Source of the DNA: Chiloscyllium plagiosum
Taxonomy: Eukaryota
Direction: 5' to 3'
Assembly (NCBI RefSeq): GCF_004010195.1
Contig: NC_057718.1
Span: 94,535,205 to 94,599,204 of the forward strand
DNA length: 64,000 nt
Shown here: positions 5,630-63,194 of the stretch, one piece after another
Numbering within the stretch: position 1 is the first letter of the stretch
Layout: the number at the start of each line of letters is the position of its first letter
The notes under the pieces: generated by a model
What the model saw: the letters and a program-made list of their open reading frames with translations, nothing else
What the model was told of the DNA's origin: nothing
The model's database searches: none
Program-made: the position numbers and the translations under genes

Positions 5630-5756
5630 AATAAAACCAAGATCTGCGGATGCTGGAAATCTGAAACCAAAACAGAAATTACTGGAGAAACCCAGCCACA
5701 TCTGTGGACAGAAAGCGGAGTCACTGTTTCAGGTGCAGTGACCCTTCATCAGAAAT
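5630..5756 (-). mobile_element. PLE family C terminal repeat with degenerate hammerhead
   Basis: Minus strand CTGATGA-A-GGGTCACTGCACCT-GAAA-CAGT; homologous to 12962-13210. Confidence 0.7.
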
Positions 5757-5896
5757 GAGTTAGACTAAACCGAAACTAGAGTTAAACTAGGTTAAAAGAG
5801 GGTAACCTTGTTCTTTGGTATCTGTCTGTTGTCTGATGCAATTCCATCTAAGCTGGGAACTAGCCTGAATCTCCATTAAAGATAAACGGTCACAGA

Positions 5897-6450
5897 CTCA
5901 TAGAGTCATAGAGATATAGAACACAGAAACAGACCCTTCGGTCCAACTCGTCCATGCTGACCAGATATCCTAAATTAATCTAGTCCCATTTGCCAACATT
6001 TGGCCCATATCCCTCCAAACACTCCCTATTCAATACTCATCCTTTTAAATGCTGTGATTGTACAAGCCTCCACCACTCCCTCTGGCAGCTGATTCCACAC
6101 ACGCACCACCCTCTGTGTGAAAAAGTTACCTCTTAGCTCCCTTTTAACTCTTTCTCCTCTCACCATAAACCTATGCCCTTTAGTTTTGGACACCCCTACC
6201 CTGAGGAAAAAGACCTTGGTCATTCACCCTATCCATGACCCTCATGATTTTATAAATCTCTGCAAGATCACCCCTCATCCTCTGACACTGCAGGGGAAAT
6301 AAGATAACCCCAGTCTATTCATCCTCTCCTTATAGCTCAAATCCTCTAAACTCCGCCAAACCCTCGTCAATCTTTTCTGAACTCTTTCAAGTTTAACCAC
6401 ATCTTTCCTATAGCAGGGAGACCAGAATTAAACGCAGTATTCCATAAGTC
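5897..6450 (-). mobile_element. CR1 LINE (HER1-type) 3' fragment
   Basis: ORF 6026-6223 TKGHRFMVRGER...RGNFFTQRVVRVWNQLP; (CTATGACT)n tail on the minus strand. Confidence 0.92.
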
Positions 6451-6726
6451 ACTCAGAATCCAACTTGTGTAATAAGCCAATTATTCTCTGTGGAATAAAA
6501 AAATTACCCAAAATCTGTAGAGCAAAGGCAAGTACTCTGGCTACTGAGATGTTATAGTAAGATCCAATATAGTGAAAGTGAAACCTGGATCTGTAGGGCT
6601 GCAGATAACATGTCCTCACTTACCATGCTCTGTATATAGCTCTGTTCCAAAGAGTTGCTGCTGTGCATTCACAAAGTGGTAGATGTCACATTACTGCAAC
6701 ATCCAACACTTAAACATGTTTATACC

Positions 6727-6922
6727 GTTAAAAATCACACAACACCAGGTTATAGTCCAACAGGTTTAATTGGAAGCACTGGCTTTGTCCACAACTACCT
6801 GATGAAGGAGCGGCGCTCCGAAAGCTAGTGTGCTTCCAATCAAACCTATTGGACTATAACTTGGTGTTGTGTGATTTTTAACTTTGTACACCCCAGTCCA
6901 ACACCAGCATCTCCAAATCATG
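6727..6922. mobile_element. PLE family B palindromic mini-element
   Basis: About 60-bp inverted arms (GTTAAAAATCACACAACACCAGGTTATAGTCCAACAGG / CCTATTGGACTATAACTTGGTGTTGTGTGATTTTTAAC) around a hammerhead; further copies at 20772, 23049 and 24290. PLE assignment is by analogy, as no family B ORF is in the window. Confidence 0.7.
6796..6830 (+). ncRNA. Minimal type I hammerhead ribozyme motif, core intact
   Basis: tac-CTGATGA-a-ggagc(ggc)gctcc-GAAA-gcta-gtg: stem I tac/gtg, 5-bp stem II, palindromic AGCT helix III, CUA cleavage triplet. Confidence 0.8.
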
Positions 6923-7099
6923 ACAGTTTATATCCTTCACCTTGATGCTCCTAGCTTCCTAACTTGGAATTATTAGGGAGTGTGTACACAATCTAGTCCC
7001 TTCATTATTTTAAAGACCTCAGTTAAATTGTGTCATTGTTCAGTTTTCTGCAAAGGATATGGACCGATATGTTTTCACCTCATCTGGTGGCTAATGAGC

Positions 7100-7430
7100 T
7101 AGAATAGCACTGTCAAAGTTATCATCTTTGCGATAAGATGGTTAGTCAAAGACTTGTCTGCCATATCAAGTGGGTGTAGCAATGCTGGTAGTGTTTATAA
7201 AGAAGGGACACTCCTGGGGACTCCGACTAACATTTATCCCTCAACCATCAATACAGGTGATCCAATCACTATCGCATTGCTGCTTGTGGAGATTGCTGTC
7301 TTCAAATTGAAAGTATTCTTTCTGACAATATAACAGCTCCGACAGATGCATGGTCATCTGTAAAGAACTTCAGACCATCCAAAAATTGTGAAGCAGTTTC
7401 CATGGTTGGCAAGATTTTTGAATTCTCGTT
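7100..7430 (+). mobile_element. Ancient DeuSINE (SacSINE1-like), decayed
   Basis: ACATTTATCCCTCAACCA...TATCGCATTGCTGCTTGTGG..TTGCTGT..CAAATTG resembles the Deu-domain and 3' region; homologous to 24520-24780. Confidence 0.55.
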
Positions 7431-9030: not shown

Positions 9031-9034
9031 ACTC

Positions 9035-12405: not shown

Positions 12406-12961
12406 ACAATCAGACAGAGTGATTGCGGTCAGAGGGAGTAAAAATAGGTGACTCATGATAATGTACAGGGGGAAGGGGGACATTTCAAGGCATCCAAAAT
12501 CAGTTCACATTTCCCACTGTGACCTCCATTTTGAGGCTTATGAATTGTTCTGACCTCTCAATGTGTACGGTGAAAGCATGGACTTCTTTGAGCAGGAACG
12601 TGGCTGTTATACTGAATTACATCTAGATCACAGCAAGTTACATTTGTCTTTAAACAAAGAAAACATTAGGGTCTAGGCTACCTTCTTAACACATTTTGAG
12701 GGGGTCTCTGGTCTAGTCCATAACACTAGGAACATTATGGCTTAAATAGTAGAGCAGTTGCTTAACGTACAAGCGGTAGTAGGATTGATGCCCACTTCTC
12801 CACTTTGGCTTTTCATTAATTATGTATGAAAGAATGAATAGATGGATTTCTAGAATTTCAAGCTGTCTAGGGTTATGAGGAGAGAGCAGGAGAATGGCAT
12901 TGTCACCTTGTTCATGGTGGAACGGGCTCAATGGCCTACTCCAGGTTTCTATCCTTCCATA

Positions 12962-13210
12962 TCAAAAATGGAAGTTGCTGGAAAAGCTCAGCAGGGTTGG
13001 CAGCGACTGTGAAGAGAAATCGGAGTTAATGTTTCGGGTCCCATGACCCTTCCTCAGGTGGGTTCTCGGAACTGTTCTGAGGAAGGGTCACCGGACCCGA
13101 AACTTTAACTCTGATTTCTCTTCACAGATGCTGCCAGACCAGCTGAGCTTTTCCAGCAACTTCTGTTTCTGTTGCTGATTTACAGTATCTGCAGTTCTTT
13201 TGGTTTCTAT
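12962..13210. mobile_element. PLE family C palindromic mini-element with two opposed hammerheads
   Basis: About 95-bp inverted arms (GAAGTTGCTGGAAAAGCTCAGC.. / ..GCTGAGCTTTTCCAGCAACTTC); hammerhead cores at 13074-13109 (+) and about 13025-13058 (-). Confidence 0.8.
13074..13109 (+). ncRNA. Minimal hammerhead motif (family C), one change in helix III
   Basis: gtt-CTGAGGA-a-gggtc(accg)gaccc-GAAA-cttt-aac; the opposite copy reads GAAA-catt-aac, implying an ancestral GAAACGTT. Confidence 0.7.
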
Positions 13211-14437
13211 TTTTGTGTGGTGCTTTTCAAATAAAGGCATGTGGCTCGGGAGCGATTGTGTGATGTTTTTGGCACTGCGACATGATCTTAACTGTAGAGA
13301 TGGGGATGGTCGCCAGTCATCAAACATAGATTCATAGAGATGTGCAGCATGGAAAAAACCCTTCAGTCCAACTTGTCCATGATATCCTAAATTAATTCCT
13401 TTTGCCAGCACTTCAGGACTCTGAAGAAGAGTTGCACCCGAAACATTGACTTCTCCACCTCATGGTGCTGCCTGGCTTGCTGTATTCTTCCAGCCTCCTG
13501 CCTGTCTATTCCGTCACATCCTCTGGCAGCTGGCAGAGGGGGCAGCAGAGAGTGAGGATGACTTTCTGAGGGTTCCTCAAGGTTTCGTAAGGAAAGCTTC
13601 CACATCTCCATCCCATTCCCTCCACTTTGACATCTTGAACTCCTCTGCCTGGAAACTCCCAGCCACTAAACTCAGGCCAGGAACTAACCCCCTTGCCTCT
13701 CCTATTCCAACTGTAATCTCCTGATAACATTAACCAGAAATAATTCACCATGCAGATGAGCTTCAAGAGTTAAAATGGATCCAGGCTTTATGCTAGATGG
13801 GCTGTGGGGACACAATTAAAATTGGATCTGGAACATGGTTTTGAAGACACCAAAGGAATACCTTGCGTCAGGTGGAAGGCAGTATTAAATGGGTCCAGAC
13901 CAGAGGCAGGTACAGACTCACTGTCAGAGTTAAAAAGAGGATCTGCTCTGAAAGTAATGGGCAAAGCTCAAGGTGGGTAAGTCACTGAGTCCTTATTGCA
14001 TCAACTGTACACTCACAAATTGCAGATTTATTACGTTCTCAAACAAGCAATGTCATTTCTTTCCTTATTAGTAAAAGCAAACTAACATGGAAATGTGAAA
14101 GACAAACAGCGTGTTCTGTTTTCATTGTTATTTCCTTTCCATTGGTCAGGACAATCCTTGGCTGCTCAGTGCAATTTCCTCTAGAATGACATGATTGCTG
14201 ACAGGAACCCAAAAGCTGCACAGTTGGGCGTCCCTTGAACTGCTGTGTACAGATTAATTCCATGTTACGGGTTGAATCAACGGGAAAGGGTGCCACTCTG
14301 GAGCAGTTTATGACCAGGGACATAGCACCGGATGCTGGAAATCACAGCAATGCCTGATTACTGTCCCAGGTTAACCAGTCCCAGTCCAGGAGCCAAGCCT
14401 TCTGTTTAACTGTTGCCTGGCACTATTTGAGTATGCG

Positions 14438-14575
14438 AGGTAAAAACAATGACTGCAGATGCTGGAAACCAGATTCTGGATTAGTGGTGCTGGAAGAGCA
14501 CAGCAGTTCAGGCAGCATCCAAGGAGCAGCGAAATCGACGTTGCGGGCAAAAGCCCTTCATCAGGAATCAGGAAC
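14438..14575 (-). mobile_element. PLE family A terminal repeat with 17-bp TSD
   Basis: TSD CACTATTTGA(G/A)TATGCG at 14421-14437 and 14576-14592; minus strand attc-CTGATGA-a-gggc(tttt)gccc-GCAA-cgtc. Confidence 0.85.
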
Positions 14576-14592
14576 CACTATTTGAATATGCG

Positions 14593-15092
14593 GATAGTGA
14601 GGACTACAGATGCTGGAAGATTAGAGTCCATAAAAATATGGTGCTGGAAACAGCACAGCAGGTCAGGCAGCATCAGAGGAGCAGGGCAGTGGATGTTTCA
14701 GGTCAGGATCTTTCAAGAACTAGAGGGCATAGGTTTAGGGTGAGAGGGGAAAGATATAAAGGGCAACTTTTTCAAGCAGAGGATGGTACATATATGGAGT
14801 GAGCTGCCAGAGGAAGTGGTGGAGGCTAGTACAATTGTAACATTTAAAAGGCATTTGGATGGGTATATGAATAGGAAGGGTTTGGAGGGCTATTGGCCGG
14901 GTGCTGGCAGGTGGGACTAGATTGGGTTAGGATAAGTTGGACCGAAGGGTCTGTTTCCGTGCTGTACATCTCTATGACTCTATGACTCTATCAGGATGAA
15001 AGGGTCCGACCTGGAATGTTGACTCTCCTGCTCCTCAGATGCTGCTTGATCTGCTGTGCATTTTCCAGCTCCACATTTTATCGACTCTGAGA
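14593..15092. mobile_element. PLE family A palindromic element split at its centre by a CR1 3' end (about 14716-14990, +)
   Basis: Left arm 14593-14714 and right arm 14991-15092 are reverse complements; between them is CR1 RTRGHRFRVRGE... ending in (CTATGACT)n. Confidence 0.8.
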
Positions 15093-18465: not shown

Positions 18466-18469
18466 CATA

Positions 18470-20668: not shown

Positions 20669-20771
20669 TTAATGCTTTGTCAAGTCGGAGTGGGGGAGCA
20701 AGTAGATACAGAAATTAAAATCAGGTGCGATATGTGACCAAAGCTGACACTAACACTCACTTTATACTGAT

Positions 20772-20952
20772 TCGGAGGAGTCGGTGTTGGACTGGGGTGT
20801 ACAAAGTTAAAAATCACACAACACCAGGTTATAGTCCAACAGGTCTATTTGGAGGCACTAGCTTTCGGAGCGCTGCTTCTACAACCACCTGATGAAGGAG
20901 CATTGCCTCCAAATAAACCTGTTGGACTATAACCTGGTGTTGTGTGATTTTT
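20772..20952. mobile_element. PLE family B palindromic mini-element
   Basis: Inverted arms AAAAATCACACAACACCAGGTTATAGTCCAACAGG / CCTGTTGGACTATAACCTGGTGTTGTGTGATTTTT; centre holds partial hammerheads on both strands; flanks CAC(T/C)TTATACT. Confidence 0.75.
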
Positions 20953-21754: not shown

Positions 21755-22648
21755 TCATAGAATCACTACAGTGTAGAAGCAGGCCATTCGGCCCATCGAG
21801 TCCACACCGACCCTCCGAAGACCCACCCCATCCATGTAACCCTGCATTTCTCATGGCTAACCCACCTAGCCTATACAAGCCTGGACACTATGGGCAATGA
21901 ATGGATTAGAGTGGTGCTGGAAAAGCACAGCAGTTCAGGCAGCATTTGAGGAGCAGTAAAATCGATGTTTCGGGCAAAAGCCCTTCATCAGGAATACATG
22001 CAGAGAGCCTAAAGGGTGGAGAGATAAATGAGGGGAGGATGGAGTTGAAATACTGCTTGTTGAGAGTATGAATTCTCCTGAGGATGGAGTACAGAAGGGA
22101 TCCTTTGCAGTTCTGAGAGGGTGTGGCCCTCAGCTGAGGCAGGGCTGACTGTAGAGAGGTTAGGTGCCGGCGCATTGCTGCGAGCATGGAGCAGAGGATC
22201 TTGAAGGAGAACCGTTGCTGGTGTTTTTGAATCTGTAGTCTGTACTGTTTGTCCTGTTCGGTTCCGAACTCTGCTGGCTTAAAGGTGGTCCGGAGTCCAT
22301 GTGGGATGAGTTGGTTACGGAGGCAGGAACTGAGGAAGCAAATGTGGCTGTAGTAGCGAGTCTGGACATGGTTGAAGAGCTTCAGGGCAGAGGAAATGAC
22401 CTGGGAGTTGCAGTGGGAGGGGGACTCCCTGAGATTCTTGTAGAGAGAGGAGGAAAACTTCTTCAAGGCAGGCATCCTTGCAAGAGGATTACCTACTATG
22501 GGCAATGAAGCATGGCCAATGCACCAAACCTGCACATCTTTGGAGTGTGGGAGGAAACTGGAGCACACCCACAGGGTAGAATTGAACCTGGGTGCTTGGC
22601 GCTGTGAGGCAGTACTGCTAACCACTGAGCCACCATGACACCCTTGCC
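21755..22648 (-). mobile_element. HE1 V-SINE split by a PLE insertion
   Basis: 3' part 21755-21901, 5' part 22495-22648 with tRNA head on the minus strand. Confidence 0.85.
21902..22494 (-). mobile_element. Internally deleted PLE family A (ORF N-terminus fused to hammerhead-bearing terminal repeat), 15-bp TSD
   Basis: TSD ACTATGGGCAATGAA at 21887-21901 and 22495-22509; open frame with HICFLSSCLRNQLIPHGL (PLE N-terminal FLxxC..IPxGL motif); core CTGATGA-a-gggc(tttt)gccc-GAAA-catc. Confidence 0.82.
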
Positions 22649-22924
22649 ACTGACACTCCTCCGTCCTCACTACTTGCCTTTCATGTCCTGTTCAGACCTT
22701 TGATAAGTTTCTAATCTGAAACACCAGCACTGATCAGGTCCTTAACTTCCTCCTCTATGCCCTTAATCCTTCCAATGACCTACTGCTGGCAAGCTACTGT
22801 CCCCGTTACTGAAATGTTTTCCTTGCTTGCCTTCCATCTGTTCAGAAACTACAAGTAATTTTATTGCAAGATGTAAATATTCCTTTTGCAAAGTTGAAAC
22901 TACCACAATCACAAATTTTTACTA

Positions 22925-23390
22925 AGAATCAACCCTGGATGACAGATGGTGGACATTATTTTCAATAAAAATCTGGAATTAAGAGTCTGATGATGATCAT
23001 GATTATTGGGAAAACTCCATCTGGTTCACTGATGTCCTTTACTGGTCTTTGGAGGAGCCGGTGTTGGACTGGGGTGTGCAAAGTTAAAAATCACACATCA
23101 CCAGGTTGTAGTCCAACAGGTTTATTTGGAATCACCAACTTTTAGGAGCACGACTACTTCATCAGGTGGTTTTGGGAGCAGCACTCCGAAAGCTAGTGAT
23201 TCCAAATAAACCTGTTGGACTATAACCTGCTGTTGTGTGATTTTTAACTTTACTGGTCTGGCCTACATGTGACTCCAGACCCACAGCAACGTGGTTGACT
23301 CTTAGCTGACCTATGAACAATCAGGGATGGGCGATAAATGGTGACCTAGCTAGTGACACCCTCATCTTGAGTGAATGAATAAACAAAACA
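22925..23390 (+). mobile_element. SINE sharing its 3' tail with the CR1-group (L2/Crack-like) LINE; contains a PLE-B insertion
   Basis: GGTCTGGCCTACATGTGACTCCAGACCCACAGCAA...CAATCAGGGATGGGCGATAAATG...GAATGAATAAA; tail resembles 44720-44800; copies at 25240 and 56955. Confidence 0.75.
23049..23247. mobile_element. PLE family B palindromic mini-element, 12-bp TSD
   Basis: TSD CTTTACTGGTCT at 23037-23048 and 23248-23259; inverted arms; hammerhead remnants at the centre. Confidence 0.8.
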
Positions 23391-24289: not shown

Positions 24290-24460
24290 TGATATGGAGG
24301 TGCCAGTGTTGGATTGGGGTGGACAAAGTCAGAAGTCTCATGATACCAGGTTATAGCCCAACAGGTTTATTTGAAATCAAAAGGTTTAGGAACGCTTAAG
24401 TTTGTGATTTCAAACAAACCTATTGGACCATAACCTGGTGTCATTTAATATCTGGCTTGA
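24290..24460. mobile_element. Older PLE family B palindromic mini-element
   Basis: ACCAGGTTATAG..CAACAGGTTTATTTGAAATC / GATTTCAAACAAACCTATTGGACCATAACCTGGT. Confidence 0.7.
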
Positions 24461-28904: not shown

Positions 28905-31080
28905 AGTCATAGAGATATACAGCATGGAAACAGACCCTTCGACCATGCTGACCAGATATCCAGTATAAATCTAATCATATTTTCCATTATTTGGCCCATA
29001 TCCCTCTAAACCCTTCCTACTCATAGACCCATCCAGAAGTCTTTTAAATATTGTGATTGTACTAGCCTTCACCACTTCTTCTGGCAGTTCTTTTCATACA
29101 CACACCACCCTTTGTGTAAAAAACTTTGCCCCTTACGTTCCTTTAATATCTTAAAACTATGTCCTCTAGTTCTAGACTGCCCCAACCTGGGGTAAAGACT
29201 TTGTCTATTTATCCTATCCATGCCCCTCATGATTTTATAAACGTCTAACCCTAACCCTCAGCGTCCGATGCTCCAGGTAAAACAGCCCCAACCTATTCAC
29301 CCTTTCCCTACAGTTCATATCCTCCAACTCTGGCAAATTTCACATAAATCGTTTCTGAACCCTTTCAAGTTTCACAACATCCTTCTAATAGGAGAGAGAC
29401 CAGAATTGCATGCAATATCCCAAAAGTGGCCTAACCAATGTCCTGTACAGCCGTAACATGACCTCTCAACTCCTATATTCAATACTCTGACCAATAAAGG
29501 AAAGCGTTGCAAATGTCTTCTTTACTATCCTATCTACCTGTAATGTCACTTTCAAGGAACTATGAGCATGCACTCAAAGACCTCTTTGTTCAGCATCACT
29601 TCCCAGGACCTTACCATTAAGTTATAAATCCTGCTCTGATTTGCTTTTCCAAAATGCAGCACCTTGCATTTATCTAAATTAAGCTCCATCTGCCACTCCT
29701 TGGCCAATTGGCCCATCTGATCAAGATCCTGTTGTAATCTGATGTAATCTTCCTCACTGTCCACTATACCTCCAATTTTGGTATCATCTGCAAACTTACT
29801 AACTATACGTCTTATGCTCACATCCCAATCATTTATATAAATGATAAAAAATAGTGGACCCAGCACCGAGCCTTGTGGCACACCACTGGTCACAGGCCTC
29901 CAGTCTGAAAAACAACCCTCCACCACTCCCCTCTCTCTTCTACCTTTGAGCCAGTTCTATATCCAAATGGCAAGTTCTCCCTGTTTTCCATGAGACCTAA
30001 CCTTTCTAATCAGTCTCCCATATGGAACCTTGTCGAACGCCTTACTGAAGTTTATATAGATCACGTCCACCACTCTGCCCTCATCAATCCTCTTTGTTAC
30101 TTCTTCAAAAAAACTCAATCAAGTTAGTGAGCCATGATTTCCCATGCACAAAGCCATGCCGACTATCCCTAATCAGTCCTTGTCTTTCCAAATATATGTA
30201 AATCCTGTCTCTCAGGATTCCCTCCATCAACCAGCCCACGACTGAGGTCAGGCTCACTGGTCTACAGTTCCCTGACTTTGCCTTATCACCTTTCTTAAAT
30301 AGTGGCACCACATTAGCCAACCTCCAGTCTTCCGGCACCTCACCTATGACTATCGATGATATAAATATCTCAGCAAGGTGCCCAGCAATCACTTCCCTAG
30401 CTTCTCACAGAGTTCCAGGGTACACCTGATCAGGTTCGAGGGATTTATCCAACTTTATGCATTTTACGAGATCCAGCATCTCCTCTTCTGTAATATGGAC
30501 ATTTGTCAAGATGTCACTGTTTATTTCTCCACGTTCTCCATCTTCCAATTCTTTCTCTACAGTAAACACTGATGCAAAATACTCATTCACTACCTCCTCC
30601 ATCTCCTGTGGGTCCACATGTAGATGGCTTTGCTGATCTTTAAGGGACGAGATAAGAGTGGTGCTGGAAAAACACAGCAGGTCAGGCAGCATCCGAGGAG
30701 CAGGAAAATCGATGTTTCGGACAAAATCCCTTCATCTTTGCCCGAAATGTCGATTTTCCTGCTCCTCGGATGCTGCCTGACCTGCTGTGCTTTTCCAGAA
30801 CCACTCGAATCTACACTCTGATTTCCAGCATCTGCAGTCCTCACTTTTGCCTACTGATCTTTAAAGGGCTCTATTCTCTCCCTAGTTATCCTTCTGTCCT
30901 TAATATATTTGTAGAATCGCTTTGGATTCTCATTAACCCTATTTGCTGAATTTATCCTGATTTCCCTCCTAGGTATACTGCTGTCTTTAAACTCTTCTAG
31001 GGATTTAATCGATATATGCTATCTCTACCTTTTTTGACCAAAACTTCAATTTCTTTAGTCATTCAGCATTTCTTTAGCTA
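28905..31080 (-). mobile_element. CR1 LINE about 2.2 kb, 5'-truncated, pseudogenised
   Basis: ORFs 29552-30692: [49 protein letters not shown]; 3' UTR at about 28905. Confidence 0.95.
30648..30853. mobile_element. PLE family A palindromic mini-element inserted in CR1
   Basis: Inverted arms; centre ...CCCTTCATC|TTTGCCCGAAATGTCG fuses two hammerhead halves; flanked by CTGATCTTTAA(A)GGG duplication. Confidence 0.85.
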
Positions 31081-34673: not shown

Positions 34674-35132
34674 CATTTTAACACCCCCTCCCACTCCGCC
34701 AAGGACATGCAGGTCCTGGGCCTCCTCCATCATCACACCCTAACCACCCAATGCCTGGAGAAGAATGCCTCATCTTTCACCTTGGGACCCTCCAACCACA
34801 TGGCATCAATGTGGACTTCACTAGTTTCCTCATTTCTCCTCCACCCACCTTATCCCAGTTCCAACTTTGCAACTCAGCACTGCCCTCATGACCTGCCCTA
34901 CCTGTTCAGCTTCCTTCCCACATATCCGCTCCACCCTCCTCTCCAATCTATCACCATCACCCTCTCCTCCATCTACCTATCTCAGCTACCTTCCCCCAGG
35001 CCCCACCCCCTCACATTTATCTCTCTACCCCCTCGGCTCACAAGCCTCATTCCCAATATTGCCCGAATCGTCAATTCACCTGCTCCTCGGATGCTACCTG
35101 ACCTGCTGTGCTTTTCCAGCACCACACTCTCG
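34674..35132 (+). mobile_element. PLE family A 3' fragment (GIY-YIG C-terminus plus terminal repeat), 14-bp TSD
   Basis: TSD ACTCAATGGGGTGT at 34660-34673 and 35133-35146; HFNTPSHSAKDMQVLGL, then frameshifted LIFHLGTLQPHGINVDF; hammerhead core partly deleted. Confidence 0.88.
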
Positions 35133-41015: not shown

Positions 41016-41092
41016 ATTGCTTTTATAATTACAGAATAGAAGAATAATTTATTGTCACTTGTGCTTTTTTAGGATAAAAATACAGTGAAAAA

Positions 41093-41580
41093 TGGATGTA
41101 GGTTTGCTTGCTGAGCTGGAAGGTTCATTTTCAGATGTTTCGTCACCATACTAGATAACATCATCAGTGAGCCTCTGAATGAAGCACTGGTGGCATGGCC
41201 CGCTTTCTATTTATGTGTTTAGGTGTCCTTGGGTTGGTGATGTCATTTCCTGTGGTGAGGTCATTTCCTATTCTTTTTCTCAGGGGTGATAAATGGGATC
41301 CAAGTCAATGTGTTTGTGGATAGAGTTCCATTTCTAGGAATTTTTGTGTGTGTCTCTGTTTGGCTTGTCCTAGGATGGATGTGTTGTCCCAGTCAAAGTG
41401 GTGTCCTTCCTCATCCGTATGTAAGGATAGTAGTGAGAGTGGGTCATGTCTTTTTGTGGCTAGTTGATGTTCATGTATCCTGGTGGCTAGTTTTCTACCT
41501 GTTTGTCCAATGTAGTGTTTGTTACAGTTCTTGCAAGGTATTTTGTAAATGACATCAGTTTTGCTTGTTGTCTGTATATA
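41093..41580 (-). mobile_element. Penelope/Poseidon-type PLE (family D) 3' fragment: GIY-YIG endonuclease plus terminal repeat
   Basis: ORF 41305-41583 VIYKIPCKNCNKHYIGQTGRKLATRIHEH...GHHFDWDNTSIL. Confidence 0.92.
41131..41170 (-). ncRNA. Minimal hammerhead motif (family D)
   Basis: tca-CTGATGA-t-gttatc(tagtat)ggtgac-GAAA-catc-tga; stem I tca/tga; helix III ACAT, probably CpG-decayed ACGT. Confidence 0.75.
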
Positions 41581-43347
41581 CATTAAAAAAAATTAAGACA
41601 TAGTTCATCCCGAGTTGAATTCATGGCTCCAGGCCTCCTGAGGTTGAGGAAATGCGACACACCACTAGAATGGTACTGATGTGACAAGTGATCATATCTG
41701 TGGCTTGAGTATCAGATACAACACAATACTTGAATGGGAAATGAATAGGAACACTATATTACGCAGGAAGGCATCCGATCTGGGTTGAAAAATCACATAG
41801 CATACGTAACAGCTATAGGGTGCAGCCTCCATTAACGTTTTGTTAGCCCTTTGCTAATGTTACATTGTGATCATGTGTGTTGTTCTTTCAACCAGAGGCG
41901 TGACAGAGACCAGCGAGTGGAAGAAGATGCTGGGAGGTTGCGAGGCAAGACGGGAATACATTTAAACTCATCCCATCAGGGAGAAAACTATGCAAAGTTT
42001 TGAGAACCTACTAATACCGCCTTTCACTCTGGCAAGTTGCAATCTTAAATTCCAGACACCAGTGCAGCCAGAACTCAGTAGGGTCCTTGTTCAAGCATCT
42101 AACTCAGGAGTCCCCATCAAATAATCCCAGTCGCTAGGGACTTCCCTAACATGGCAATTTTCCTGGGATCACATGAATCATGGCCAGATGAGGCTCATCA
42201 AGGTAATTTTGTTTAAATTGTTTGTAAATTCCTGCTTGACCAGAAGAATATTTTTCTCTCCTTTAGTCCCCTTTCCTCAACTGCAATTGCTTCCAATCAG
42301 CCCATGTCTTATCATCCCTGCTGGGAATATTGAATCAGTAAGATCCCAGGGTGAGACCTGGGTGGATAAACCAGAAGTATTACTTTCTTCTTTCTGTTAA
42401 CAGTGGAGGTCAGTCTCTGAATATATGCAGAAGAGGCTGTCAATGTACTTTCAACAAAGAACATAAACCTTCATTTCACAAAAGGCAAGAGAAGACATAT
42501 TTTTAACTTCACAAGAACACTTGGAATGAAGTTGTCATAGATATCAGATGGAAACTTTCAATTCTTTTCTTCCACCAGTAATTTTCCTGACAATCAAAAC
42601 CCTTACCTCTGTGCTGAAGCTCTTTATTCAGCTGTCATCTCTTTCCTCTTGGCAAAGTTCTGTGCATTCACTGAAAGCTGTTCTCCTCAATTTGCAACTC
42701 TCCCTGCGATATATAATCAAGCTGCTGACTCAGTTCACTATTACTGCCATACAAGGGTTCCTTAAAATCATATTCACAACAGCTTTGGACCATGTCTTGC
42801 CCTCTGATACTCCCACAACCTTCTACTTCTGGCGTTTTCTTCAAAGCAACACCGGACATCTTCCCAGTCCTGCTTTGACCGTTTTCTCTACCCTTCAACA
42901 TGTCTGCTGTTACAGACCTTTTCCCTCTGAATGAACCTGTGTTAGAACCTTACACACTCTCTCCTTCTGGGTTATAAAACACAAATCTCCTCAACAATTA
43001 TCTCCTGGTTATGGGGAGGTGGGGCGCTTGCTGGTCATTTTGTTAAAATTATACCCAGCCATCCAGCCAGCAACACCTATATCTGAAAAGCCAATTTAAA
43101 AAAAAAATGCTATTTCTTGGATGTGCTTTCTCTAGCTCATGGTTCAAACTGGCTTTCTGAAATTTTGTTTTTAAAATAACACATCAGACATTTGCAGAAC
43201 TGAAAACTAATATCCCTTTGTCCTCCACGTTAGAACCTAAGTCTCCAAATAGTAATAAATTGAGCCTTCATTGTACTCACCGCATTGATAGCTTTATATC
43301 AGAGAGCTGTTCTTTCTGATCTCTGGTAGCAGTCACCAATCACTGAA

Positions 43348-43626: not shown

Positions 43627-43701
43627 CATCCCTGGGTGGTCTCAAACCACCAACCTTTTCGGTTAACAGCTAAACACGCTGACTAGTTACAGCACAGAGA
43701 C
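43627..43701 (-). pseudogene. tRNA-Asn(GTT) pseudogene
   Basis: Minus strand GTCTCTGTGCTGTAACTAGTCAGCGTGTTTAGCTGTTAACCGAAAAGGTTGGTGGTTTGAGACCACCCAGGGATG aligns end to end with vertebrate tRNA-Asn-GTT; T-loop TTC>TTT and D-arm changes; TTTT 3 nt downstream. Confidence 0.88.
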
Positions 43702-49149: not shown

Positions 49150-49610
49150 TTTCACTTCTTTTTATTAAGGTTTGGAATGTGGCAGGGCCAGCATATAGTG
49201 TCCAACCCCAATTCCCCTTTGGAAGGTGATTGTGAACCACCTTTTTGAAGTACCTTGTGGAGTAGGGGTAGCCACAGTGGTATTAAGGGAGGAAGTCCCA
49301 GGACTTTGACCCAGTGACAGTGAAGGGATGGTGATATATTTGATTCCTGATGAAGGTCTTTTGTTCGAAACGTCGATTTTCCTGCTCCTCGGATGCTGCC
49401 TAACCTGCTGTGCTTTTCCAGCACCACTCTAATCTAGACTATGATCTCCAGCATCTGCAGTCCTCACTTTCACCCATCTGATATATTTCCAAGTCAGGAT
49501 GGTGAGTGGGTTGGAGGGGAACGTGCAGATGGTGTGTTCTAATGTATCTGCTAACCTTGTCCCTCTTGGTAGAGATCTGGAAGGTGCTGTCTATGGAGCT
49601 AATAACGAGA
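49150..49610 (-). mobile_element. CR1-group (L2/Crack-like) LINE 3' end containing a PLE-A insertion
   Basis: Same tail family as 44490-44800; PLE at 49342-49478 flanked by TGATATATTT duplication. Confidence 0.75.
49343..49378 (+). ncRNA. Minimal hammerhead motif (family A), core and ACGT palindrome intact, stem II weakened
   Basis: attc-CTGATGA-a-ggtc(tttt)gttc-GAAA-cgtc-gatt; GUC cleavage triplet. Confidence 0.72.
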
Positions 49611-50774: not shown

Positions 50775-51332
50775 TGATGAAGGCTTATTCCTAAGGCGCT
50801 AAGAATTGTTCTCCTTGGATGCTGCCTGGCCTGACGTGCTTTTCCAGAGCCATAGATGTCGACTCGGACTCTCCAGCAAATGCAGACTGCACTTTGTCCA
50901 TTGCTGAGGGATGAGTCGAAGAGTGTGGTGCTGGGAAAGCACTGCTGGTCAGGCAGCCTCTGAAGAGCAGAAGAATCGATGTTTCAAGCACAAGCTCTTC
51001 AACATGAATTAGGCTTGAGGCTCAAGGGGGCACGAGATAAGTAGGTTGGGCAGAAGATAGCTAGAAATGCGAAAGATAGATGACAGTGGGGAGAAGGTGA
51101 TCAGTTGTTGAGAAGAGTAGAGCTTATATGTGAGAAGAAAGAGAGACAGGGAGGGCAGTTCTTCGATAGGGCATTGCTGAGTTAGAGGGTTGGATTTCGG
51201 ACAATATGATGGGTGGTGAAATGAGAAAGCTAATGAAATCCACATTGATGACATATGGTTGGAGAGGTTAAGGTGGAAGATGAGGCGTTCTTCCACCAAG
51301 TGTCAGGTGTTTAGGTTTTGGTGGTGGAGAAG
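50775..51332. mobile_element. Two PLE-A termini tail to tail; the minus copy carries a GIY-YIG C-terminus
   Basis: ORF 51009-51299 VEERLIFHL; inverted terminal-repeat arms at about 50805-50900 and 50910-51000. Confidence 0.75.
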
Positions 51333-51334
51333 GC

Positions 51335-52095
51335 CCTTCCTGGCTACCTTATAACTCTCAATCGCCCCAATTGAACCTTCACGCCTCATCTTTATATAGG
51401 CTGCCCTCTTCCCTTTAACAAGGGATTCCAAATCCTTATTAAACCATGGCTCTCTCACACGACCCTTTCCTCCCTGCCTGACAGGTACATACTTATCAAG
51501 GACACTCAATAGTTGCTCTTTGAACAAGCTCCACATATCAATTGTGCCCTTCCCTTGAAGCCTACTTTTCCAAGCCATGCATCCTAAGTCATGCCTCACC
51601 GCATCATAATTTCCCTGCCCCCAGCTATAACTCTTGCCCTGCAGTGCACACTTATCCCTCTCCATCACAAGAGTAAAAGTCACCGAATTGTGGTCAATGT
51701 TCTCAAAACTAAACTAGCTCCACCTGTCTGCATTTGGCCCATATCCCTCCAAACCTCTCCCATTCATAAACTTATCCAAGCATCTTTCAAACCTTGTAAC
51801 TGGACCTGCATCCATCACTTTCGCTGGCAGTACATTCCACTCTCTGGGTAAAAAAAGATGCCCCTTATGCCCTTTATAAATCTTTCTCCTGTCACTTTGA
51901 AAATATGTCCCCTAGTTTTGAGTTCCTCCTACCTCGGGAAAAGAGCCTTGTCATTCACCTCATCCATGCCCCTCGTGATTTCATGAACCTCAATCAGGGC
52001 ACCCCTCAACCTCCTGAGCTTCAGTGAAAAAGATCCCAGCCTTTCCAGTCTATTTTTATATCTCAAACTCTCCATTCCCTGAAACATCCTAGTAG
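51335..52095 (-). mobile_element. CR1 fragments (endonuclease-RT linker 51335-51700; 3' region 51705-52095)
   Basis: ORF 51303-51683 MWSLFKEQLLSVLDKYVP..EPWFNK; downstream CR1 C-terminal motifs. Confidence 0.88.
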
Positions 52096-56954: not shown

Positions 56955-57330
56955 TTTCAATTAATGCATGGGTGCAAGCTTTACTGGCTAGGCTGGCATT
57001 TATAACCCCCGCCCCACCCCCACCCACCCTCACCCCCCCCCCCCCATCTCCCCAGTAATTGTCTGGAGGTTACTGAGAATCAACCATATTGCTGTGGGTC
57101 TGGAGTCATGTGCAGGCCAGACAAGGTAAAGACAACAGGTTTCCTTCCCAAAAGGACATTAGTGAACTAAGTGGGTTTTTACAACAAATCAACAGCGATC
57201 ACACTATCATAGTTCAGCCAGATTTTAATGTTATTGACATCAAATTTCACCATCTGTTATGGTGGGTTTGGAGCCCAGTGCATTAGCCTGGATTACTAGG
57301 CCAGACATATTTCCACCACATCCCCTTGAT
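56955..57330 (-). mobile_element. SINE of the 22925 family with a C-rich tract
   Basis: TTGCTGTGGGTCTGGAGTCA..TGCAGGCCAGAC..AAGGACATTAGTGAAC; C-rich tract at 57005-57050. Confidence 0.78.
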
Positions 57331-59114
57331 CTATTCACTTCTAGCTCCATTTCTCCTGATCGTCTGCTGGTTTCCGTGGCAACCATATGAACATACACAA
57401 ATTGCTGTTTTTTTAAGCCCATTGCTGAGCAAACACCCCCAACATTGAAGTCAGTGAAGTCTTCTGTTGGTAACTTAATAGACCCAGCTTCCTGCAGCCA
57501 GGAGGAGGAGGTGGACCCGAGAGTGTGGCTAGGCCCCTGCTGCCTCGGACTCTTATCTTTCCTTTCCCCACCTACTCAAATTTAAGCCCCTACGCTATCA
57601 TGTGACTCTATCAACCAGTTAAAACCCCCAGTCTTTGCCCTTCATCCTCCATTGTCTCTTTCCCACTCACTAACCTTCAGTGAAACTCTTTTGCTAAAGT
57701 TGCTCTGGGCCTCTGCTAAAGGCCCATGAGCAGGATTTGTGAAGTGATCTACCCAAGCTAGGAATTGAAATTGACCTTAAAACTACCAGTGTAAACCCCG
57801 TCAGTGAATTCCTCACAGGCCACTTCTAATTCCTCCGAACACGTCCCTGCAATTCCCGTGAACCTGCTGCAAGTACATCAGTTGATAAGGTCAATTCATT
57901 TTTAGAATGACTGAATTGCAGGAACCATTTCCTCTACGCAGCATGAGTCACGATACACACACTAGGTGGGCTGGGCTTTCTGAGTGCCAAGATGATACAC
58001 GTCAGAGCAGCTCAGACACACAGGGGCCAGGGAAAGGGCAGCTTGCCAACTGCACTCTTGTCTTTAGTTATTTCTCCAACATCAGCAGTCACTGCTTTTC
58101 CTCTGCCTCAGCCTGGCAGTGGCTGCTGTGTTTTCAGGTTAGAGTAACCTCCATTGCTTCCAGGGCTTGTAAGACTTGCTCAGAACGCATTCACAGTTAT
58201 GAGAATACTCCCTTACGCGAACCTCTTTCCATGTCACTTTCTCTTAGACTCTCAGATCACCGTTGCTCTGGCAACACTGCAGGTGCTCAGCCTTTCTTGC
58301 CACCACATGGCCTCAGCCTCAGATACTCGCACAGCAAGAATCAACTGATAGCCCAGAGTCACTCCCTTTGGGGGAAGATGAAGAATTTACGGTTATCAAT
58401 GCCATCTCGGACATCCTCACTGGGACAGGCATCGTCAGTTAATTATTCCTGTGAAGCCATTAGTGAGTAAGGGAAGGATGTCAAGTTAAGGAGGAAATGA
58501 CATGAGAGGTGAAATGAGAGGTGGAAAGGCCGTGGTAATGAACAAGAGCATGCCAGTGTTGGAGAAGGCACAATTACACATTGTTAGGAAGTTGTAATGG
58601 AGTCAGCTTTCTATCTAGACTGCATCATAGGGTTGGGATTGTGGGGGAAGGGGGGGAAGGTTCCACATGCCATCAGCCAGAGCATATTATGAATAGTTTG
58701 TTGCGAAGGGCTGCTTTAAGAGGTGGGTCATGTGTTGTCCTGCGAAAGAATCTGCAACTTCTCTTCACACTGTTACTCTGGCAGTGAGGGATTTGGCAAT
58801 TGTAGTGGCACCACCAGCTCTTGGCACCAGTGACACTTCTGATTGAGGCAATGGTTCCACCTAACAGTCAATAGTCCGCTGGCCTTGCCTCTTATGTCCA
58901 AGGAGGTTGGGATAAGCGATACACATTCTACATCCACAACGTGGTTCTGATGCAACTCAAGCACAGATACCAGTTCAATCTTCATTATTTGGTCCCTGTG
59001 TAAATAAACTATTGGTTAGGCACACACAATGACTCCATTTCCTGAGAGGAATGAAGCAGACCTACCCTCTTGCTTGTATCCCACGGTCCTAGTAATGTGT
59101 CGCAGGTTTGCAAT

Positions 59115-59310
59115 TTAAAACAAAATCTGAAGTTTGTGAAAGAACTCAGCAGGTCTGGCTGCATCTGTGGAGAGAAAGCAGTTGTTAACATTTTGGGTCT
59201 TTGGACCCGAAACCCTGCTTTCTCTCCATAGATGCAGTCAGATTAGCCGAGCATTTCCAGCAATTTCTGATTTTGTTTCTGATTTCCACAATCTGTTGTG
59301 GTTTTGTTTT
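59115..59310. mobile_element. PLE family C palindromic mini-element (older)
   Basis: CATCTGTGGAGAGAAAGCAG / CTGCTTTCTCTCCATAGATG arms; centre TTTTGGGTC..GACCCGAAAC. Confidence 0.7.
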
Positions 59311-59368
59311 GTGTAATTTAAAAGACTATACAATTCATGGACTCGTTCTCTTAGCCAGTGTGCTTTTC

Positions 59369-59410
59369 TGCAAACATTTCGTCACCTTGCTAGATGACAC
59401 CATCAGTGCA
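59369..59410 (-). ncRNA. Hammerhead-like motif (family E) with CUGAUGG core variant
   Basis: tgca-CTGATGG-t-gtcatc(tagcaa)ggtgac-GAAA-tgtt-tgca; second, more decayed copy at 61631-61672 (+). Confidence 0.6.
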
Positions 59411-60361
59411 TCTTCGTTAAAGTGTTGGTGGCCTATCCTGCCATGTATTTATATGTCTCTGTTGGTACTTCCAGTTCTGTATCTGACTCGTTTGTATACG
59501 GGATCCAGTTCATTGTGTCAATTGATTGAATTCCAGTTGGAGTGCCATGAATTCTCTGGTGTCTCTCTGTTTAGCCTGTGCTAGGATGGTTACATTGTCC
59601 CAGTTGAATTTGTGTCTGTGTGGTTGGAAATGAGAGAGTACTGGTCGTGTCTTGAAGTGTTGTTCGTGCACTCGTATGGTCAGTTTTCTTCCCGTTTGTC
59701 CTACATGGTGCTTTTCACAGTCTTTGCAAGGTATCTTGTTAGATAACATTGGTCCTGTTGAATGTGGGTGTCCGGTCTTTGTGAGGAGCTGGTGGAAGGT
59801 ACTTACTGGTTTGTGGGTCACTAAGATTCTCAGGGTCTGAGTAGTCAGGTAGATATCTCTAATATGTCTTCGATGTATGGTATGGTATAGTCGCTATCTG
59901 TCTAGTCGTGCGGTGTTTTCTTCTTTGGATTTAGTCCCGTAGGTACCAGAGGAGAGTGCTCTTGGGATACCCGTTTCATTTAAATCCTTTGAATAGATGT
60001 TCCTGTTCATTCTCCTGGAGTTGTGCGTTGCTGCAGTGTGTCCTTGCTCATTTAAATAATGTCCTAATGCAGCTCCGTTTGTGGGTGTTAGGGCGGTTGC
60101 TGTTATAATTCAGTATTTGGTCAGTATGGGTGTTCTTACTGTACACACTGGTCAGGAGTTCTCTGGTAGATGTGCGTTCCACCAATACGTCCAGGAAGGA
60201 GAGTCTGCTGTTGTTTTCCTCTTCTTTAGTGAACCTTATTCTGGTGAAGATCTTTTTGATGTGGTGGTGGGCTTCTTCCAGTTGTGATGTTTAATGATGA
60301 CAAAGGAGTCATCTACATACCAGATGGTGGGGAGGGCAGCATTCCGTTACTGCTTCTGCTA

Positions 60362-61112
60362 TCATAGAGTCATGGAATCTTAAAGATATACAGCACAGCA
60401 ACAGACCCTTCAGTCCAACTCATCCATGTCAACCAGTGTCCTAACCTAATCTGGTTCCATTTGCCAGCACTTAGCCCATACCCCTCTAAACCCTTCTTAT
60501 TCATATACCCATCCAGATGCCTCAGGCGACTGACTGTGTTGAGTTTGCACGTTCTCCCCGTGTCTGCGTGGGTTTCCTCCGGGTGTTCCGGTTTCCTCCC
60601 ACAGTCCAAAGACGTGCAGGGTCAGGTGAATTGGCCATGCTAAATTGCCTGTAGTGTTAAGTAAGGGTAAATGTAGGGGTATGGGTGGGTTTCGCTTCGG
60701 CGGGGCGGTGTGGACTTGTTGGGCCGAAGGGCCTGTTTCCACACTGTAATGTATTGTAATGTAAAGTGCTGTACTTGCACCAGCCTCCACCACTTCCTCT
60801 GGCAGTTTATTCCATAAACACACCACCTTCTGTGTGAAAATGTTGCCCCTTAAGTCCCTTTTAAATCTTTCACCTCTCACCCGAAACCTATGCCCTCTAG
60901 TTCTGGCCTCCCCTACCCCAGGGAAAGACCTTATCTATTTACCCTATCCATGCCCCTCATGATTTTGTAAGCCTCGATAAGGTCACCCCTCAGCCTCCGA
61001 CACTCCAGGGAAAACAGCATGTATTCTGAATATTCTGCCTCTCCCTATAGCTCAAACCTTCCGACCCTGGCAACATCCTTGTAAATCTTTTCTGAACCCT
61101 TTCAAGATTCAC
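60362..61112 (-). mobile_element. CR1 3' fragment inserted in the PLE RT, itself carrying an HE1 (about 60521-60765, +)
   Basis: [24 protein letters not shown]; separates PLE PMGSP from AEAV. Confidence 0.92.
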
Positions 61113-63194
61113 ATCGGGGACCCCATTGGTGTGCTGTTGATTTGTTTGTACATTTGTCCATTGAATGTAAAGTGAATTGTGAGACATATGTCTAGTAGTT
61201 TTAATACGCTGTTCTTGTTGATGGTGCTGGTGTCATTGGGTGTCCATTTTGTTCAATAATGCGGCAATGGTATCCTTGGCTAGGTCGATGTCAAAAGATA
61301 TGAAGAGTGCTGTTATATCAAATTAAATCATTATTTCATCCTCTTCTATTATTGTGTTTCTGATGATGTTGAGGCACTCCTAGGATGAGTGGATGGAGTG
61401 GTTGGAGTATTCTATCAAGTGTTTAAGTTTTTTTTGCAGCTTCTTGGCTAACCTGTAACAGAGACACACCAGAGAATTCCTTGAAGCCTGGCATTCCAAC
61501 TGGAATTCAATCAATAGACACATTGAACTGGACCCCATATACAGACCAGTCAGATATAGAACCAGAAGTACCAACAAACAGAGACAGAGGAATCCCTGGC
61601 GGGACAGGCCACCAACACTTTTATTGAAGATGCACTAATGGTGTCACCTAGTGAGGCAACAAAATGTTTGCAGAAAAACACACTGGCTTGGCAAACGAAT
61701 CCATGACTACATCCACAACCTGAGCTATACATCTTCACAAGAACACTGTACAATTCAGCTGCTCTCTCTAGTTCTAAACCTATCTTACGTGAATGAATTG
61801 AAAAGGCGATTTTAACCCTTTAATCCCTCATTCAGACCAGCTGAGGGTCTGGTTCCTTTGTTCAAACATGTATTCATGCATTGGCGGTGTACCCAACAGT
61901 GATGGTACACAACTCAAGTTTTACAACAAAGACCGTGGCTTTGTATTATTTCTACAGATAACAGTGGAATTTGATTTCCAATCAATTCCAATTTCCAATC
62001 AATAGGTTATGTATTTTTTCACTCTACCTAACAATGCTCAAAGAGTTTATATTCCAGATTAGCACATGTGCCTGCATTATCCAATCACATTCAAAATAGC
62101 ACACATTATGAGATTATCTGATCATATAATATGATGTTCACATGCATGTACATACTTGTGATTATTGGAAACTCTTTAATGTCTCTTCTCCCTCCATACA
62201 CCCATCCAGATGCCTTTTAAATGTTGTAACTGTACCAGCCTCCACCACTTCCTCTGGCAGCTCAATCCATACATGCACCACCCCGCTGCATGAAAAGGTT
62301 GTCCCTTAGGTCCTTTCTCAGTCTTTCCCCACACTTACTGCAATAGCAGCTTACATCACACTGAGAAAATTCTGGATTACAATCTTCTAACATGTCAATA
62401 CCAGGATGTCACTGTTTCTTCCCATTGTAATGACACATCCTGACTTTTGATTCTAACACATCATTGGACTACAAACGACACATTCTTCTTGTTCGTTGTG
62501 AGATTATTTATATTAGATAAAATCGATCTGTCTTTAAATTGAGCTTCTCAAATTAAAAGTAAAACAGCAAAAGACAAGAAAATAAATGAAATGAAATATA
62601 TGAAGAACTGCTCAATGATATACTGGAGTAAAGAAAGAATTGGCAAGTGCTAACAGCAGGAAAACGAGAAAGAAGAAAACAAATTGCCTGCGACCAGCAG
62701 AAAGGAAACAGCAGATGCTTGTTCAGGAACAGGACAAAAGCCAGGCAGACCCATCAGATTTAGTTCCTTTTGATCAGTTGAAAGATTTGGAATTACATCA
62801 CATTCTCTCATCTGGTCCTTCCTGCTCCAACCGTGAGAAAAAAAACAAAGGCCTGCACTTGTAGGCCTCATGAAGGTGAGGTAAACAAGGCCTAAAGATA
62901 CTTGCAGTCTCCTGACCCTACTTCCAGTGGACAGTCTATCAGGGTTAATGGAGGTGAATTGACAGTCTCCTGTTGGCCTTCAGTTTCTCGGTGTGACAAA
63001 AGAGGTTCACTTGACCCACAGCGGGTGTTCCAGACATGCCTGCAGAACGTCACTTCATGCTCGGACAGAGGACAGTGGGCACGCTAAGGCCTTACTGTAG
63101 AGGAGGAGGAGGAGGCCTCACTGACCCCTGACCCACCACCACTTCCACGGTGCTTCCTCATTTTAACTGATATTCAGTGTTCATTGCTCAAACA

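Follow-up and report, generated by a model that had tools for sequence, protein, structure and literature searches.

In 2014, Cervera and De la Peña (PMC4209133) reported minimal type I hammerhead ribozymes (min-HHR) from the Penelope-like elements of metazoans, as thousands of motifs in several families per genome, with about 4,000 in the coelacanth and about 9,000 in Xenopus. These motifs follow the type I scheme CUGANGAH...GAAAN-palindrome-NUH, with an extra nucleotide after A9 and a G10.1-C11.1 pair, and have a short helix I, a palindromic 15.2-16.2 step and no loop III. Several families coexist in a genome, mostly as single truncated copies and in some cases as opposite-strand pairs. The alignment given there contains both ACGU- and AGCU-type tetramers, with C-G in most rows and G-C in Chrysemys. 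The motifs in the 64,000-nucleotide stretch of Chiloscyllium plagiosum DNA analysed here (hereafter the window) share this layout; stem II of our family A, with 4 bp, lies at the short end of the published range, and its stem I has 2 bp plus a mismatch. This kind of motif is ordinary here except for its shark host; a search of the paper's text and a supplement file, in the parts covered, found no shark name.

Two further systems are close. The Poseidon element PAc of Anolis carolinensis (Frangieh et al. 2024, PMC11167929) has, like the elements in the window, a reverse transcriptase (RT) with a C-terminal GIY-YIG endonuclease, a hammerhead in its pseudo-LTR, two reverse-transcription starts that give an optional tail, AT-rich targets and a main template of uncut RNA; PAc differs in being intact and showing activity in vitro, whereas all copies in the window are truncated. 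The non-LTR retrozymes of animals (PMC7229834; bioRxiv 10.64898/2026.07.22.740005), which the latter study found also in its one chondrichthyan genome, likewise consist of Penelope-linked repeats with type I hammerheads. They form tandem arrays, in contrast to the dispersed or inverted copies of the window, where no head-to-tail array of hammerhead-bearing units was found and all tandem units were 20 nt or shorter.

Detection of hammerhead motifs

A relaxed hammerhead descriptor gave 5 matches in the window, compared with a mean of 0.015 and a maximum of 1 in 200 dinucleotide shuffles, and a strict descriptor with Watson-Crick helix III gave 1 match, compared with none in any of the 200 shuffles. 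The motifs are real. CTGANGR...GAAA motifs with stems were present at every place where the initial annotation had reported them, with position C3 at 49347 (+), 21991 (-) and 14564 (-) for family A, 6799 (+) for B, 13077 (+) and 13057 (-) for C, 41167 (-) for D, and 59406 (-) and 61635 (+) for E. In total we counted about 35 motif arms across the window, in agreement with the earlier estimate of more than 20 traces: 23 A/C-type matches, one further C copy at 5752, eight B arms, one D motif and two E arms. A further copy of an A/C-related subfamily, absent from the earlier list, lies at 13417..13510 (+), with a complete 12/12 core (CTGAAGA) and damaged stem II and helix III.

With Rfam covariance models, a search that the initial annotation had suggested, no hammerhead appeared among the 7 matches in the window at E values up to 10. 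This weighs against membership of the Rfam families, not against likeness to hammerheads. Two metagenome pattern scans returned no match each.

Core, stems and helix III

Among 16 scored copies, all 12 core positions were intact in 7, covering families A, B, C and D; the core, which had been described as fixed, is not fixed in the genomic copies. Departures include G at position 9 in both E arms and GCAA for GAAA at 14564. Core, stems and palindrome were all kept in a single copy, B at 6799. The row of the C copy at 52250 was parsed one base off in this scoring, and this copy is not intact under either parse. The nucleotide lying after position 9 and before 10.1, which the initial annotation had noted, and the G10.1-C11.1 pair were present in 5/5 best copies. 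Pairing was found in 34 of 35 cells (pairs 1-4 of stem II, pairs 1-3 of stem I) with varied pair types, across five hand-picked copies that form three lineages. Within family A the covariation signal was weak, both CpG decay and a shift in the alignment acting as confounders, and we did not take pair counts as covariation. A cross-family MAFFT alignment misplaced D and E and was left out of the analysis.

The loop-less palindromic helix III, which had been claimed for all five families, can be read literally in four copies only: B 6799, with AGCT, and the A copies 49347, 14564 and 1033, all three of which are damaged elsewhere. The centre of the A tetramer reads CG in 5, CA in 5, TG in 4 and CC in 1 of 15 copies, which justifies reconstruction of the palindrome for A. 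For families C, D and E, the initial annotation had reconstructed it, and we only infer a palindromic 15.2-16.2 step there; related shark proteins read Thr at this place, which fixes C15.2 and not G16.2. Helix III CpG survived in 5/15 A copies, the same as CpG in the neutral tail (5/15), so the A palindrome appears to decay like neutral DNA. With 15 of the 16 scored copies broken and the palindrome decaying in this way, the copies are relics and not working ribozymes; the very large and diverse ribozyme population proposed earlier is therefore only partly borne out, by the high copy density.

Insertions of families A, B and C

The A insertion at 49342..49478 (+) begins at the 5′ strand of stem I and has a 12/12 core, the ACGT tetramer and 3/4 stem II pairs; its exact 10-bp duplication is borderline against chance. 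At 14438..14575 (-), the A copy with the altered GCAA core keeps its palindrome and is flanked by a 17-bp duplication (16 matches). An internally deleted A insertion at 21902..22494 (-), with a 15-bp duplication, fuses an ORF N-terminus (22475-22026) to the terminal portion of the pseudo-LTR with the hammerhead, whose helix III has decayed to CA; its motif is thus preceded by an ORF N-terminus and not by a GIY-YIG domain. This N-terminus is linked to the protein P0006 indirectly, via P0065, and an Atlas search with it returned nothing. A frameshifted C-terminal ORF remnant, a pyrimidine-rich pseudo-LTR and a partly deleted hammerhead make up the insertion at 34674..35132 (+), which has a 14-bp duplication; a second copy with this same remnant and a pseudo-LTR lies at 50906..51335 (-), with a decayed hammerhead (C3 51005). 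Two inverted A pairs were found at 30647..30853, joined inside the hammerhead with a duplication of 13/14, and at 970..1144, beyond the coordinates of the initial annotation, with a duplication of 12/13.

The sole fully intact hammerhead, B at 6796..6830 (+), has a stem I of 3 bp, a stem II of 5 bp and AGCT as helix III, and its predicted cut site follows position 6827 (CUA). It belongs to the first of four B inverted pairs (6727..6925), which has the long tail on its + arm and a candidate duplication of 8/9, within the chance range. The second pair (20768..20952) contains two incomplete hammerheads, the long tail on its - arm and a duplication of 11/12. The third (23049..23247) has a decayed hammerhead (C3 23165, -) and a perfect 12-bp target-site duplication, and the fourth (24290..24445) is old and keeps the 3′ half of the motif only. 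In all four, exactly one arm bears the long tail, and the junction of the palindrome lies within about 40 nt upstream of the predicted cut site. Family C is represented by an inverted pair at 12953..13211 with two core-complete motifs, in each of which helix III is broken (CA and CT), and by a decayed C-type copy at 5630..5756 (-).

Families D and E and the coding remnants

Family D is one insertion at 41098..41585 (-), in which a GIY-YIG fragment (frame 41592-41305) is followed by the hammerhead at 41170-41131, with a 12/12 core and helix III decayed to CA. Its Pfam GIY-YIG match (E 5e-4, 20.7 bits) falls below the curated cut-off of 22.6 bits, and its identity to shark RT-bearing proteins reaches 92%. 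Family E is also one insertion (59338..61744), flanked by a duplication of 12/13, and its two motifs are the two arms of this insertion. A 5′-truncated RT-thumb-GIY-YIG coding stretch (61415-59460, -), broken up at 60340-61110 by other repeats, precedes the hammerhead at 59410-59369, and the inverted pseudo-LTR arm at 61457-61744 contains the second motif. The coding stretch maps in order onto the RT, thumb and endonuclease of P0006 (residues 284-697). By inspection of the E frames and of P0001, P0002 and P0006, D and E have no CX2-5CxxC linker before GIY-YIG, an absence shared with the Penelope/Poseidon clade (criterion of PMC8557442).

E was considered as a G9 core variant and rejected, as both arms belong to one insertion and the letter A dominates the contig depth at 59400 (position 9), with 3354/3601 (93%) and 1037/1195 (87%) depth units, to which related families contribute. 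The stem II C-G pair over E accounted for 98% and 96% of contig depth. At 59376 (position 15.2), no other letter was listed in the contig depth over E and the palindrome was not restored; this fits either a real T, with a U-G wobble in helix III, or seeding that favoured T-bearing contigs. A related shark protein has Thr at this spot. For 57000-62000, no RNA data set was listed. In poly(A) single-cell libraries, about 2% of run X21 yielded 7 reads and X22 none, with no pile-ups of read ends.

The statement that the motif lies directly 3′ of a GIY-YIG ORF in A, D and E was correct for D and E, where the distance is about 100-140 nt, and not for the three A copies quoted, which have no GIY-YIG upstream. 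Only the A copies at 35057 and 51005 have a C-terminal ORF remnant, about 230-250 nt from the motif. We presume this remnant to be the endonuclease (GIY-YIG) end; no GIY-YIG was detected in the A coding remnant by Pfam, homologue search, pairwise BLAST or Atlas. Families A and C may belong to the Neptune clade, for which a CX2-5CxxC linker and RT phylogeny are the criteria; the A copies of the window contain neither linker nor RT.

The five families do not stand as independent units. The tails of A and C are homologous (score 45, compared with a maximum of 28 in shuffled sequences, 0/300), and the proteins of D and E share 50% identity, so the sequences indicate at most three lineages. No coding remnant of B or C lies in the window; their Penelope status therefore rests on insertion anatomy and, for C, also on homology to A.

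Insertion anatomy and reverse transcription

Duplications of 11-16 matches flank 7 of 19 tested insertions and the whole E insertion, compared with 10 or fewer matches in 300 random intervals. Penelope-like elements with an endonuclease (EN+) are characterised by truncation at the 5′ end, an inverted pseudo-LTR arm and an optional tail of 30-40 nt at one end, and 4/4 B pairs, the A pairs, the C pairs and the E insertion follow this pattern. The one-sided tail of the B pairs is the layout given in PMC8557442. The window contains no full-length or tandem pLTR-ORF-pLTR copy. Sequence upstream of the predicted cut site was reached by 13 of 16 usable A alignments, by 8/8 B arms (better of two references) and by 5/5 usable C arms; 13421 and 52139, which aligned to neighbours, and 13077, itself the reference, are excluded from these counts. 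Since the majority of copies extend across the predicted cut site, the RNA from which they were made was likely uncut, in line with uncut RNA as the main template of the anole element (PMC11167929). Ten of the 16 usable A alignments start 6-34 nt upstream of the predicted cut site.

Origin and role of the motifs

We consider it highly probable that these copies are dead, 5′-truncated end-pieces of several Penelope-like families, whose pseudo-LTR contained a minimal type I hammerhead that likely cleaved tandem RNA. The central proposal of the initial annotation, that Penelope-like pseudo-LTRs contain minimal hammerheads of the dimer type, is supported: its listed traits are all typical according to PMC4209133, and the insertions have Penelope anatomy. 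By analogy with published elements, a tandem pLTR-ORF-pLTR transcript would unite two motifs, whose self-complementary A15.1-U16.1 tetramers (ACGU or AGCU) would pair as a shared 4-bp helix III, with cleavage 3′ of GUC in A and D, of GUU in C and E, and of CUA in B. Cleavage of the parent RNA was likely slow, took place between two motifs that exchange strands, and was probably helped by the element's own protein. Target-primed reverse transcription would have produced the copies, beginning in the tail at about 55-105 nt 3′ of the cut site, on RNA uncut at that hammerhead or re-ligated; the copies would then have been truncated or inverted and have decayed ever since. Nearest-neighbour energies for the intact B copy were -14.7 kcal/mol for the active dimer, -8.3 kcal/mol for each monomer and -30.4 kcal/mol for a non-hammerhead duplex, so the active dimer is not favoured in this model.

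It is possible, at well below even chances, that in the parent elements the motif was kept mainly as a structural or protein-binding RNA near the reverse-transcription start, with cleavage rare or dispensable. This would share its origin with dead pseudo-LTR end-pieces and is compatible with them, differing only in the target of selection. Most copies span the cut site and the dimer is energetically disfavoured; moreover, the anole element remains able to insert when its hammerhead is mutated, none of the RNA-seq reads starts or stops at its cut site (PMC11167929), and Naiad elements spread without canonical hammerheads (PMC8557442). However, the catalytic core and the NUH triplet are kept across three lineages with differing stems, and the anole ribozyme cleaves with protein, C3G/G8C giving partial rescue (PMC11167929). 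Rather improbable is that B, and perhaps the shortest A copies, were non-autonomous mini-elements of hammerhead plus tail mobilised in trans. The four B insertions are indeed all palindromes of about 150-200 nt without coding sequence, and the A starts 6-34 nt upstream of the cut site would suit such a unit, but autonomous Penelope-like elements normally show heavy 5′ truncation and 5′ arms in inverted orientation (PMC8557442), longer A copies with ORF remnants exist, and the junctions differ among the four B pairs, which therefore represent separate events and not one amplified unit.

Retention of B 6799 by the host for cutting a host transcript is very unlikely. It alone among the 16 scored copies has all features intact, yet one survivor in 16 needs no selection, and B helix III decays more slowly because it contains no CpG. 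The copy sits in an inverted pair, so that in a transcript its tail would base-pair with the other arm, and no partner on the same strand lies close by. The search for a host exon was negative: Pfam gave no match in 150 of 194 non-repeat ORFs, a scan that left out 5 ORFs over the 21909-22691 ORF and 39 beyond 51300. The probability that a short pattern was merely matched by chance is negligible; the silence of Rfam and the reconstructed letters required by the C, D and E family motifs would allow it, but it is refuted by the excess of descriptor matches over shuffles (5 against a mean of 0.015), and the motifs keep a fixed position beside Penelope coding remnants and tails, with contig depth over E restoring A9 and the stem II C-G pair.

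Dead Penelope-like end-pieces reveal no new ribozyme type, and nearly all copies in the window are dead. They add the Penelope-like families of a carpet shark, with a high density of about 35 traces per 64 kb, to an established class of RNA, and provide natural material for the question of what role the hammerhead has in the Penelope life cycle, given that uncut RNA is copied. The A starts 6-34 nt upstream of the cut site (10/16) and the B joins within about 40 nt upstream of it tentatively suggest that the hammerhead fold sets a reverse-transcription stop or template switch in shark Penelope-like elements, a reading we regard as speculative and on balance unlikely. If true, the ribozyme would yield mini-insertions of 150-200 nt with duplicated sites, and palindromes, throughout the genome, a role beyond cleavage.

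Hammerhead motifs are non-random

The hammerhead motifs of the window are real and non-random. A loose pattern scan found CTGANGR...GAAA motifs at the places named in the initial annotation. Five sites in the whole window (positions of core C3: 6799+, 13077+, 21991-, 41167- and 59406-) matched a relaxed descriptor consisting of a stem II of at least four pairs, a NUH triplet and a stem I of at least two pairs, whereas 200 dinucleotide shuffles averaged 0.015 matches and never exceeded 1. When A9 and a Watson-Crick helix III were demanded, only 6799+ remained, and none of the 200 shuffles yielded a match. Profile searches of the window gave 23 A/C-type matches and, beyond these, a C copy at 5752, eight B arms (halves of inverted pairs), one D match and two E arms, about 35 traces where more than 20 in 64 kb had been estimated. 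The suggested Rfam check did not recover the motif, hammerhead being absent among the 7 Rfam matches in the window at E up to 10.

Every trait ascribed to this minimal, dimer-type hammerhead of Penelope-like elements is named in the available text of PMC4209133, which counts approximately 4,000 motifs in 6 families in coelacanth and 9,000 in 8 families in Xenopus. The initial identification is right in kind; intactness and diversity were overstated. In the accessible portions of the literature on Penelope elements, shark and cartilaginous-fish genomes and hammerhead ribozymes, our search turned up no account of these shark families; the supplement of PMC4209133 may bear on sharks, one chondrichthyan genome is included in bioRxiv 10.64898/2026.07.22.740005, and "shark" in the accessible part of PMC6155905 denotes only the shape of the motif.

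Decay of the copies and pairing of the stems

Sixteen copies were scored from C3 onward, copies with either half of the motif (5′ or 3′) missing being excluded; one row was parsed one base off and is broken under either parsing. All 12 core positions were kept in 7 of the 16, and core, both stems and the palindrome (helix III tetramer 15.1-16.1) together only in B 6799, the one copy for which a fixed core with paired stems and palindrome holds in full. The helix III dinucleotide in the A alignment (15 copies) was CG in 5, CA in 5, TG in 4 and CC in 1, indicating CG as the ancestral state. A tail CpG outside the ribozyme gave similar counts in A copies (CG 5, CA 5, TG 4, CT 1), so the palindrome that would form the dimer is being lost at the rate of background CpG; these sequences give no sign of selection on it after insertion. 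The palindrome claimed for all five families stands for A and for B 6799, and is a reconstruction in C, D and E. Threonine at the helix III spot in P0001 and P0004, predicted shark proteins reading through related motifs, fixes C15.2 and leaves G16.2 free.

With each of the five families represented by its best copy, 34 of 35 cells paired (stem II pairs 1-4, stem I pairs 1-3); a single stem position showed as many as four pair types, and G10.1-C11.1 occurred in 5/5. These copies were selected for their quality, and the five families cannot be treated as independent: homology links the A and C tails (score 45 versus a shuffled maximum of 28 in 300), and the proteins of D and E share 50% identity. 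The observation behind the proposed stem covariation is varied pair types between families, in hand-chosen copies of related lineages. Within A, 73% of cells paired versus 67.7% in shuffles (3/500), a signal that we discount because its main two-sided component comes from a column affected by both CpG decay and a shift of register.

Coding remnants upstream of the motifs

The position directly 3′ of a GIY-YIG ORF, asserted for A, D and E, agrees with D and E and fails for A at 21991. The D motif is preceded by a GIY-YIG fragment that stays under the Pfam cut-off (E 5e-4). The best matches of this fragment come from Stegostoma, Chiloscyllium and Hemiscyllium; they are predicted proteins, several of them bearing an RT domain, and would put the host in the carpet-shark group. 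The region 41080-41340 (-) is linked to the predicted proteins P0001, P0004, P0012, P0013, P0018 and P0003. Among predicted shark proteins, several include Penelope endonuclease sequence or translate across the hammerhead, some under host-gene names; they are probably gene-model artefacts or exonised repeats.

On the minus strand, the E insertion (59338-61744) preserves remnants of RT, thumb and endonuclease in their proper order, broken up by other repeats; it also has an inverted pseudo-LTR arm and a target-site duplication of 13 bp containing one mismatch. One interrupting LINE/SINE-like block lies at 60340-61110. Since both E motifs belong to this single insertion, their shared G9 and T15.2 stem from one event. 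Over the E positions, A made up 93% and 87% of depth at position 9 in contig sets X1 and X13, and the stem II C-G pair was restored in 98% and 96%, depths that include a contribution from related families. At 15.2 the contigs listed no alternative letter, which speaks against the palindrome reconstruction, with a possible seeding bias.

A frameshifted ORF end, putatively a Neptune-type GIY-YIG C-terminus, precedes the A copies at 35057 and 51005 by approximately 230-250 nt; none of four tools confirmed the GIY-YIG identity. The single insertion at 21902-22494 (-), bounded by a 15-bp duplication, fuses an ORF N-terminus, some 150 codons long, to the hammerhead and the final 50-60 nt of the pseudo-LTR; within it, the 21991 motif follows the N-terminus. 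The host site is a SINE-like repeat. Among the shark homologues of this N-terminus is the distant P0065 (E 9e-4), whose sequence runs on into a stretch that matches the pre-RT region of P0006, an RT-endonuclease protein (E 8e-8). Given this chain, 21902-22494 reads as an internally deleted Penelope-like derivative, not as a motif behind a GIY-YIG domain. Two A-type copies, each from a different subfamily, share a strand at 14438-14722 (-) with a spacing of about 150 nt; the younger one's duplication lies between them, and the motif is broken in both.

Insertion anatomy and predicted cleavage

According to the accessible text of PMC8557442, Penelope-like elements are typically 5′-truncated and carry an inverted 5′ copy, as well as a tail of 30-40 bp on one side. 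The window resembles this in the four inverted pairs of B, each with a long tail on a single arm, and in the inverted pseudo-LTR arm of E. Target-site duplications of 11-16 matches bounded 7 of 19 insertions tested, against a maximum of 10 matches in 300 random intervals. Ten of 16 A alignments start 6-34 nt upstream of the cut, and 4/4 B junctions fall within about 40 nt upstream of it, the B references themselves extending only about that far. Reverse transcription could stall or switch template at the hammerhead; steep ordinary truncation, with very short copies missed by the search, could produce the same picture of start points.

The predicted cut falls inside 13 of 16 usable A alignments, 8/8 B arms and 5/5 usable C arms, which argues that their RNA templates were uncut or re-ligated. 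This agrees with the Poseidon element PAc of Anolis carolinensis, for which the available text of PMC11167929 reports uncut RNA as the main template, cleavage that requires the element's protein, and a ribozyme dispensable for in vitro insertion. For tandem transcripts, the available text of PMC4209133 proposes that two minimal motifs share a helix III made of the palindromic tetramer, and reports monomers uncleaved and dimers weakly cleaved. The constrained B 6799 dimer was modelled at -14.7 kcal/mol, each monomer at -8.3 and a non-hammerhead duplex at -30.4, the catalytic core being left unscored; these energies are in line with weak unaided activity. Beyond the observed anatomy and decay, we infer that tandem RNA of the parent elements would have been cut slowly, as a dimer, with protein help.

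Tails and surrounding repeats

In the A tail, at 49380-49430 (+) and the corresponding part of all A and C tails, CTGAC leads into a pyrimidine run that closes with CAG, an arrangement that to us resembles a branch point and 3′ splice site; the end of the A tail common to C is TTTTCCAG. Introns are known in Penelope pseudo-LTRs.

About 36% of the window is self-repeated (many places within 6000-62300), largely as 3′ ends of an RT-encoding LINE, presumably CR1-like, and a SINE-like repeat. A tRNA-like match at 43627-43701 (-), at 28.6 versus 29 bits just below the Rfam cut-off, is possibly the head of a tRNA-derived SINE.
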